Origin: Escherichia coli
GTDB taxonomy: Bacteria > Pseudomonadota > Gammaproteobacteria > Enterobacterales > Enterobacteriaceae
Length of the DNA: 64,000 nt
Reading direction: 5' to 3' (one strand)
Assembly: GCF_003334405.1 (NCBI RefSeq)
Contig: NZ_QOWM01000005.1
Shown here: positions 56,248 through 58,395 of the stretch, piece by piece
Numbering within the stretch: position 1 is the stretch's first letter
Layout: the number at the start of each line of letters is the position of its first letter
Notes under the pieces: generated by a model
The model's database searches: none
The model's input: the letters and a program-made list of their open reading frames with translations, nothing else
Told to the model about the DNA's origin: nothing
Position numbers and translations under genes: made by a program

Positions 56248-58395
56248 ATGAAAAAAGTCGTCACGGTTTGCCCCTATTGCGCATCAGGTTGCAAAATCAA
56301 CCTGGTCGTCGATAACGGCAAAATCGTCCGGGCGGAGGCAGCGCAGGGGAAAACCAACCAGGGTACCCTGTGTCTGAAGGGTTATTATGGCTGGGACTTC
56401 ATTAACGATACCCAGATCCTGACCCCGCGCCTGAAAACCCCCATGATCCGTCGCCAGCGTGGCGGCAAACTCGAACCTGTTTCCTGGGATGAGGCACTGA
56501 ATTACGTTGCCGAGCGCCTGAGCGCCATCAAAGAGAAGTACGGTCCGGATGCCATCCAGACGACCGGCTCCTCGCGTGGTACGGGTAACGAAACCAACTA
56601 TGTAATGCAAAAATTTGCGCGCGCCGTTATTGGTACCAATAACGTTGACTGCTGCGCTCGTGTCTGACACGGCCCATCGGTTGCAGGTCTGCACCAATCG
56701 GTCGGTAATGGCGCAATGAGCAATGCTATTAACGAAATTGATAATACCGATTTAGTGTTCGTTTTCGGGTACAACCCGGCGGATTCCCACCCAATCGTGG
56801 CGAATCACGTAATTAACGCTAAACGTAACGGGGCGAAAATTATCGTCTGCGATCCGCGCAAAATTGAAACCGCGCGCATTGCTGACATGCACATTGCACT
56901 GAAAAACGGCTCGAACATCGCGCTGTTGAATGCGATGGGCCATGTCATTATTGAAGAAAATCTGTACGACAAAGCGTTCGTCGCTTCACGTACAGAAGGC
57001 TTTGAAGAGTATCGTAAAATCGTTGAAGGCTACACGCCGGAGTCGGTTGAAGATATCACCGGCGTCAGCGCCAGTGAGATTCGTCAGGCGGCACGGATGT
57101 ATGCCCAGGCGAAAAGCGCCGCCATCCTGTGGGGCATGGGTGTAACCCAGTTCTACCAGGGCGTGGAAACCGTGCGTTCTCTGACCAGCCTCGCGATGCT
57201 GACCGGTAACCTCGGTAAGCCGCATGCGGGTGTTAACCCGGTTCGTGGTCAGAACAACGTTCAGGGTGCCTGCGATATGGGCGCGCTGCCGGATACGTAT
57301 CCGGGATACCAGTACGTGAAAGATCCGGCTAACCGCGAGAAATTCGCCAAAGCCTGGGGCGTGGAAAGCCTGCCAGCGCATACCGGCTATCGCATCAGCG
57401 AGCTGCCGCACCGCGCAGCGCATGGCGAAGTGCGTGCCGCGTACATTATGGGCGAAGATCCGCTACAAACTGACGCGGAGCTGTCGGCAGTACGTAAAGC
57501 CTTTGAAGATCTGGAACTGGTTATCGTTCAGGACATCTTTATGACCAAAACCGCGTCGGCGGCGGATGTTATTTTACCGTCAACGTCGTGGGGCGAGCAT
57601 GAAGGCGTGTTTACTGCGGCTGACCGTGGCTTCCAGCGTTTCTTCAAGGCGGTTGAACCGAAATGGGATCTGAAAACGGACTGGCAAATCATCAGTGAAA
57701 TCGCCACCCGTATGGGTTATCCGATGCACTACAACAACACCCAGGAGATCTGGGATGAGTTGCGTCATCTGTGCCCGGATTTCTACGGTGCGACTTACGA
57801 GAAAATGGGCGAACTGGGCTTCATTCAGTGGCCTTGCCGCGATACTTCAGATGCCGATCAGGGGACTTCTTATCTGTTTAAAGAGAAGTTTGATACCCCG
57901 AACGGTCTGGCGCAGTTCTTCACCTGCGACTGGGTAGCGCCAATCGACAAACTCACCGACGAGTACCCGATGGTACTGTCAACGGTGCGTGAAGTTGGTC
58001 ACTACTCTTGCCGTTCGATGACCGGTAACTGTGCGGCACTGGCGGCGCTGGCTGATGAACCTGGCTACGCACAAATCAATACCGAAGACGCCAAACGTCT
58101 GGGTATTGAAGATGAGGCATTGGTTTGGGTGCACTCGCGTAAAGGCAAAATTATCACCCGTGCGCAGGTCAGCGATCGTCCGAACAAAGGGGCGATTTAC
58201 ATGACCTACCAGTGGTGGATTGGTGCCTGTAACGAGCTGGTTACTGAAAACTTAAGCCCGATTACGAAAACGCCGGAGTACAAATACTGCGCCGTTCGCG
58301 TCGAGCCGATCGCCGATCAGCGCGCCGCCGAGCAGTACGTGATTGACGAGTACAACAAGTTGAAAACTCGCCTGCGCGAAGCGGCACTGGCGTAA
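56248..58395 (+). CDS. fdhF: Formate dehydrogenase H (selenocysteine, Mo-bis-MGD, 4Fe-4S; 715 aa) read through an in-frame TGA at codon 140
   Basis: Two ORF-track segments (56248-56667 and 56716-58395) are in the same frame and joined by TGA at 56665-56667; N-terminal Cys cluster CPYCASGCKIN; SECIS hairpin directly downstream of the TGA. Confidence 0.95.
56665..56712 (+). promoter_or_regulatory. UGA(Sec) codon and SECIS stem-loop of fdhF
   Basis: tgacacggcccatcggttgcaggtctgcaccaatcggtcggtaatggcg, the SelB-binding hairpin immediately 3' of the UGA. Confidence 0.85.

Follow-up and report, generated by a model that had tools for sequence, protein, structure and literature searches.

The fdhF locus of this Escherichia coli DNA raises the question of how an in-frame TGA codon, lying within an otherwise open coding sequence, is read by the ribosome. 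When open reading frames (ORFs) are listed mechanically across the 64 000 nt stretch of DNA that was analysed (hereafter the window), fdhF appears as two pieces in frame 1, an ORF of 139 aa that is terminated by TGA (56248-56667) and another of 559 aa (56716-58395). Such an arrangement could be taken as a pseudogene, as two adjacent genes, or as a single gene whose UGA is recoded. The initial annotation of this DNA proposed that the UGA is read as selenocysteine (Sec) with a hairpin on its 3′ side, and anticipated that a naive ORF caller would split the gene, as the ORF list indeed does. The observation was confirmed and the interpretation is supported by the evidence described below. We assign a probability of about 98% to the conclusion that this UGA is translated as selenocysteine by means of a SECIS hairpin and SelB. 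The coordinates of the features discussed are collected in Table 1.

Table 1. Features at and around fdhF, with positions in the window.
Feature	Position	Strand	Basis
Terminator-like hairpin and T run directly after mdtP	56057-56082	+	
Sigma-54-type -24/-12 promoter-like element TGGCATAAAAGATGCA, 52 nt upstream of the fdhF start	56181-56196	+	Pattern match, 2 mismatches
fdhF CDS, 715 codons and stop, formate dehydrogenase H	56248-58395	+	Translation; PDB identity; RefSeq; TIGR01591
Full SECIS element (RF01988), including the lower helix GUGUC/GGCGC	56660-56714	+	87.1 bits; MFE fold
UGA codon 140, selenocysteine (Sec140, molybdenum ligand)	56665-56667	+	Frame; X at 140 in PDB 1aa6_A; homologues
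Upper stem-loop GGUUGCAGGUCUGCACC, minimal SelB-binding minihelix, nt 15-31, 11 nt 3′ of the UGA	56679-56695	+	Fold; conservation; PMC8659212
UU pair, one U bulged	56681-56682	+	MFE fold; RF01988 match; PMC8659212
G23 and U24, loop bases, SelB contacts	56687-56688	+	Sec versus Cys homologues; PMC8659212
Intrinsic-terminator-like hairpin and T run, 14 nt past the fdhF stop	58409-58437	+	

Direct reading of the sequence places the TGA at exactly 56665-56667, which is codon 140 of the frame. Translation of 56248-58395 as a whole yields 715 sense codons, with codon 140 as the only internal stop, plus the terminal stop. A frame change between the two ORF segments, which had been named as an observation that would speak against recoding, was looked for and is absent; both segments lie in frame 1 and belong to a single continuous translation. 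The earlier description of a 139 aa and a 559 aa piece split within one frame is correct, but the two are not joined by the TGA alone, as 16 in-frame sense codons (56668-56715, HGPSVAGLHQSVGNGA) also intervene between the TGA and Met157. The longer ORF begins at Met157 because the ORF lister requires a start codon and this is the first usable ATG. It is this ATG-initiated ORF that could suggest two genes, one encoding a 139 aa protein and the other a 559 aa protein starting at ATG 56716. However, the 16 codons between the TGA and this ATG are open and in frame, and the amino acids that they specify are invariant in orthologues. In addition, residues 141-156 reside within the single solved chain of 715 residues (PDB 1aa6), and the homologues that have Cys at position 140 are each encoded by one uninterrupted ORF. 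The existence of two separate genes is thus vanishingly unlikely.

The read-through product is identical at 715 of 715 residues (100%) to the formate dehydrogenase H chain of PDB entries 1aa6, 1fdi, 1fdo, 2iv2 and 7z0t, and we found no difference from the known protein, whose position 140 is a non-standard residue (X in 1aa6_A). The product also matches the NCBIfam equivalog TIGR01591 (formate dehydrogenase subunit alpha) with 1089 bits against a cutoff of 666.25. Its translation contains C8, C11, C15 and C42 of the N-terminal 4Fe-4S motif as well as the U140-H141 active-site pair. In RefSeq the locus is represented by one CDS of 2148 nt, fdhF, with mdtNOP upstream and yjcO, gltP and nrfG downstream. 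Structure 7z0t is that of the formate hydrogenlyase complex, in which FdhF would work with hydrogenase 3; the hyc operon is absent from the window.

From dtpC to nrfE, the whole window runs colinear with MC1061, a K-12 derivative, at 99.96-99.98% identity. Of 5426 complete E. coli genomes, 5420 contain a match (95-100% identity) to the 2351 nt fdhF region, and no match to it was found in the other 6. In strain Ec-U18 (NZ_CM192145.1, H12), only the first 42% of the queried fdhF region is present, where it adjoins gltP and is labelled ‘molybdopterin-dependent oxidoreductase’, which suggests that a deletion took the 3′ part of fdhF plus yjcO. The product of fdhF goes under differing names in RefSeq, an example being ‘formate dehydrogenase N subunit alpha, selenocysteine-containing’ in NZ_CP028690.1 (H5).

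If the TGA were a nonsense mutation, fdhF would be a pseudogene from which only the fragment of 139 residues is made. The mechanical ORF list, which splits the gene at the TGA, is compatible with this possibility, as is the behaviour of a reporter carrying fdhF codons 130-179, in which UGA140 is recoded at 30-40% efficiency (PMC4513850) and a large share of ribosomes therefore terminate at the UGA. Against it, 5420 E. coli genomes retain the TGA, as do 16 of 16 intact enterobacterial orthologues and 49 of 77 homologues, the 575 codons downstream are clearly conserved at the protein level, and the full-length protein has been crystallised and its structure solved. The probability that codon 140 represents a nonsense mutation is practically nil.

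With the U of the UGA as nt 1, the minimum free energy (MFE) structure of 56665-56712 is a hairpin of nt 3-42, in which GGUC forms the apical loop and one U of the upper stem is bulged. The MFE fold of the 55 nt span 56660-56714 adds the lower helix, which brackets the UGA, and reproduces the structure of Rfam family SECIS_2 (RF01988). This model matches the span over positions 1-55 of 55, with 87.1 bits against a gathering score of 70 and an E-value of 1.8e-17 for the whole window, and the sequence agrees with the RF01988 consensus at every position bar one compensated pair. SECIS_3 scored 35.8 bits on the window, which is under its gathering score of 63. The minimal fdhF SECIS has been described as a 17 nt minihelix located 11 nt from the UGA, in which U17, G23 and U24 are essential, and the hairpin features in the window fall at the positions described (PMC8659212). 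The bulged base in the MFE fold is U18, an arrangement equivalent to the bulged U17 of the literature numbering. The upper stem-loop is invariant in 17 enterobacterial sequences. The proposal that the 40 nt immediately 3′ of the TGA form the stem-loop that recruits SelB therefore holds as far as the hairpin is concerned, but the part bound by SelB is the 17 nt minihelix and not all 40 nt. In its distance from the UGA, its GGUC loop with G23/U24 and its bulged U, the element shows no difference from the prototype E. coli fdhF SECIS (RF01988). Given that the window is K-12-like, the element is the prototype itself and not a relative of it.

Folding of 56665-56712 had been put forward as a check on the hairpin. 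The expected structure was obtained, but its energy does not stand out against shuffled sequences (z = -0.67), as 49 of 200 shuffles fold as well. The 55 nt span is likewise not more stable than chance for its composition (z = -1.23). Folding energy therefore cannot carry the SECIS claim. Stability above that of shuffles is not a defining feature of SECIS elements in the literature, and it is the covariance-model score and the comparative evidence that set this element apart from chance.

Because the element is so conserved, covariation says little within the Enterobacteriaceae. The 18 enterobacterial and Haemophilus sequences compared share 96% identity over the element and offer one compensatory cell, and values as high as those observed arise in 29 of 500 shuffles. 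Therefore, we used distant UGA homologues and an analysis of synonymous sites. In 32 distant UGA genes, 87% of the cells of the apical helix (pairs 16-32 to 21-27, enclosing a 5 nt GGUCU loop) are paired, compared with 74.8% in shuffles, and none of 500 shuffles reaches the observed percentage. Compensatory changes occur in three of the six pairs, with pair 18-30 seen as GC, CG, AU and UA, and pairing of the helix falls to 20-60% when the 3′ partners are slid by 1-3 columns.

The Sec-type FdhF genes (loci L033-L080, nt 1498-1545) use at least three registers of the apical hairpin. The 4 nt GGUC loop with a bulged U is the register of the Enterobacteriaceae, most other representatives have the 5 nt GGUCU loop and no bulge, and L036, L037 and L040 carry the apical loop at nt 20-24. 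Accordingly, the SECIS elements of distant Sec-type genes (from Firmicutes, Deltaproteobacteria and others, of the SECIS_3 type) differ from that in the window in their stems, which either use pairs 16-32 to 21-27 or place the loop at nt 20-24, although they share the UGA codon and its distance to G23/U24. This distance is constant in 50 of 50 UGA genes despite the differences in register. A single common structure for all UGA homologues was considered and is ruled out by these stem registers; what the genes share is only G23/U24 and their distance to the UGA.

Homologues in which the UGA is replaced by a sense codon provide a further means of examining the proposed function, and the initial annotation had named sense codons without a conserved hairpin as evidence that would count against it. 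A scan of one genome per species gave 79 loci encoding FdhF relatives, two of which are truncated, could not be aligned at codon 140 and were set aside. In the 77 loci compared, which come from many phyla, the codon before His141 is TGA in 49 and TGC or TGT (Cys) in 28, and no sense codon other than Cys occurs at position 140. For counts of sequence features we compared 50 UGA genes, comprising these 49 and the window, with the 28 Cys genes. G23 together with U24 is present in 50 of 50 UGA genes and in 5 of 28 Cys genes (Fisher p = 3e-15), and GGUCU at +22 to +26 is found in 46 of 50 and 0 of 28 respectively. Where nt 22-24 form a Gly codon, that codon is GGU in all 47 UGA genes compared with 5 of 27 Cys genes. 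An MFE fold that leaves G23/U24 unpaired is obtained for 49 of 50 UGA genes and for 11 of 28 Cys genes. As related sequences are not independent, the set was collapsed into clusters of 80% protein identity, after which the GU is kept in 32 of 32 Sec-only clusters versus 1 of 16 Cys-only clusters (p = 1.5e-11). The sense-codon homologues thus encode Cys and, as a group, have lost the G23/U24 loop signature, and the interpretation survives this comparison. Alignment to enterobacterial fdhF gave the result that had been expected, in that the TGA is retained in 16 of 16 orthologues and their hairpins hardly vary.

In the tree of these proteins, Sec-type and Cys-type members are intermingled. The Sec locus L039 and the Cys locus L035 are 80% identical and both derive from the MAG OH_PBB_71. 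Other Sec and Cys loci that share a genome are L003/L045, L004/L028, L009/L024, L010/L021, L011/L026, L014/L025, L015/L022, L044/L029 and L048/L027. Many genomes of Enterobacteriaceae carry both a Sec-type FdhF orthologue (>80% identical to that of the window) and a Cys-type paralogue that is ~64% identical. Judged from the sequences compared, retention of the TGA and hairpin in the orthologues, together with loss of the loop signature in the Cys homologues, is what a Sec/Cys pair with a SECIS should show.

Another account of the conservation 3′ of the UGA would place the constraint on the protein: the active-site loop could be held by amino acid or codon-usage requirements, with read-through of the UGA occurring independently of a SECIS. 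The unremarkable folding energies given above are in keeping with this account, as is the conservation of HGPSVAGL in Sec and Cys homologues alike. We examined synonymous variation in 17 enterobacterial orthologues (81-99.6% protein identity), which have gap-free frames of 715 codons with TGA at codon 140 in all. The eight lowest sliding windows of synonymous variation in fdhF all fall within codons 134-159, and codons 144-149 and 151-152 are each represented by one codon across the 17 species. In contrast, three to five codon variants occur at each such position in 14 Cys paralogues that belong to the same families and likewise encode S-V-A-G-L. Mean synonymous diversity over codons 141-153 is 0.12 in the Sec orthologues, compared with 0.44 in the rest of the gene, and 0.59 in the Cys paralogues, compared with 0.49. 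As synonymous sites are free in the Cys paralogues, the nucleotide constraint goes with the UGA rather than with the peptide. Moreover, G23 and U24 follow the UGA and not the amino acid, since three UGA genes with Ser at the codon over nt 22-24 use AGU and so retain both bases. The compensatory changes in the stem and the match to the Rfam model also argue against a constraint that acts through the protein, and deletion of the SECIS abolishes read-through of the reporter (PMC4513850). Taken together, these data make read-through without a SECIS extremely improbable.

Synonymous constraint is also evident outside the 17 nt minihelix, in the lower stem, in the helix that brackets the UGA and at codons 130-131, 135-136 and 139. 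Within the bracketing helix (56660-56664 with 56710-56714), a C-G pair alternates with U-G. Effects of upstream codons and a modest effect of the lower stem have already been described. It seems to us rather unlikely that the constrained sequence beyond the minihelix serves a separate function that goes further than these effects, such as setting when refolding occurs or protecting the UGA from RF2.

SECIS-dependent decoding of this UGA can be set out as a series of steps. As the ribosome nears, the mRNA just 3′ of the UGA would fold into the SECIS hairpin. The C-terminal domain of SelB would bind the minihelix through G23/U24 and the bulged U, as published experiments on this fdhF segment indicate (PMC4513850; reviewed in PMC8659212), with SelB carrying GTP and Sec-tRNA(Sec), the selC product that would read the UGA. 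By the same kind of evidence, the fixed tether of 11 nt between the UGA and the minihelix would place Sec-tRNA(Sec) in the A site, where it would compete with RF2. Translation would then continue to yield the formate dehydrogenase H of 715 residues, with Sec140 at the molybdenum centre. We infer the efficiency of insertion at this locus from published experiments on the same sequence, in which recoding of UGA140 needs the SECIS and a supply of selenium, and RF2 is a poor competitor (PMC4513850). Published work also reports a selenium-containing FdhF of 80 kDa, impaired production of the full-length protein in selA, selB, selC or selD mutants, and loss of UGA140 read-through when G23, U24 or the bulged U is mutated. 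The window itself contains no tRNA genes, and the genes of the Sec machinery likewise lie outside it. Of 5426 complete E. coli genomes, 5425 contain the E. coli tRNA-Sec sequence, annotated as tRNA-Sec. An annotated selB is present in MC1061, which has a near-identical fdhF region (100.0% to the window).

The sequences flanking fdhF were examined for signals of transcription. The fdhF gene is transcribed from a sigma-54/FhlA-dependent promoter. Matches to the sigma-54 consensus are not enriched in the window (34 compared with 43 expected by chance), and the assignment of the promoter-like element in Table 1 therefore rests on its position and on prior knowledge. Upstream of this element, a 7 nt inverted repeat, CTGACGA(N11)TCGTCAG, is present at 56104-56128 (+) and, to judge by its sequence and location, could be an activator (FhlA) site. 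As terminator-like hairpins follow both mdtP and fdhF, fdhF was marked as a monocistronic unit.

Several other elements were observed elsewhere in the window. Repeats of the naRNA4/BIME type form an array of four units spaced by 100 bp at 29433-29809 (+), a group of four units in the spacer between yjcO and gltP (59183-59592, -) and a single copy at 32285-32365 (-). The first array is ~200 bp (two units) longer than its counterpart in MC1061, and copy number therefore varies between K-12-like strains. A full-length match to the STnc630 sRNA family lies at 23602-23767 (-), with 181.8 bits against a gathering score of 55; on coordinates mapped to MC1061, its overlap with proP is confined to the final few bases, and the match extends past the 3′ end of that gene. 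The ghoS/ghoT type V toxin-antitoxin pair, mapped in the same way, resides near the start of the window at ~2730-3230 (-). The phnE gene (~32384-33171, +) is annotated in MC1061 as a frameshifted pseudogene. The window aligns to MC1061 phnE without gaps and therefore carries the same K-12-type frameshift, so that in this gene, unlike in fdhF, the frame is genuinely broken.

The closest contrast to the gene in the window is offered by the Cys-type FdhF paralogues (L016, L018-L032 and others). These proteins have the same fold and share the peptide CARV-[U/C]-HGPSVAGL, but their genes have TGC or TGT in place of TGA. As they have no loop motif and their synonymous sites after codon 140 are free, they are Cys-type paralogue genes without a SECIS.

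The in-frame UGA of fdhF is a textbook case that has been known since the 1980s, and it is the founding case for programmed recoding of UGA in bacteria. The UGA and SECIS in the window are therefore already known and constitute no new biology. Their practical value is that of a positive control, in which a recoded stop codon is recognised where a plain ORF caller splits the gene or calls a pseudogene. The comparison of Sec and Cys homologues, which relies on frozen synonymous sites and on the presence of G23/U24 in UGA genes, is reusable for SECIS candidates whose folding energy is uninformative.
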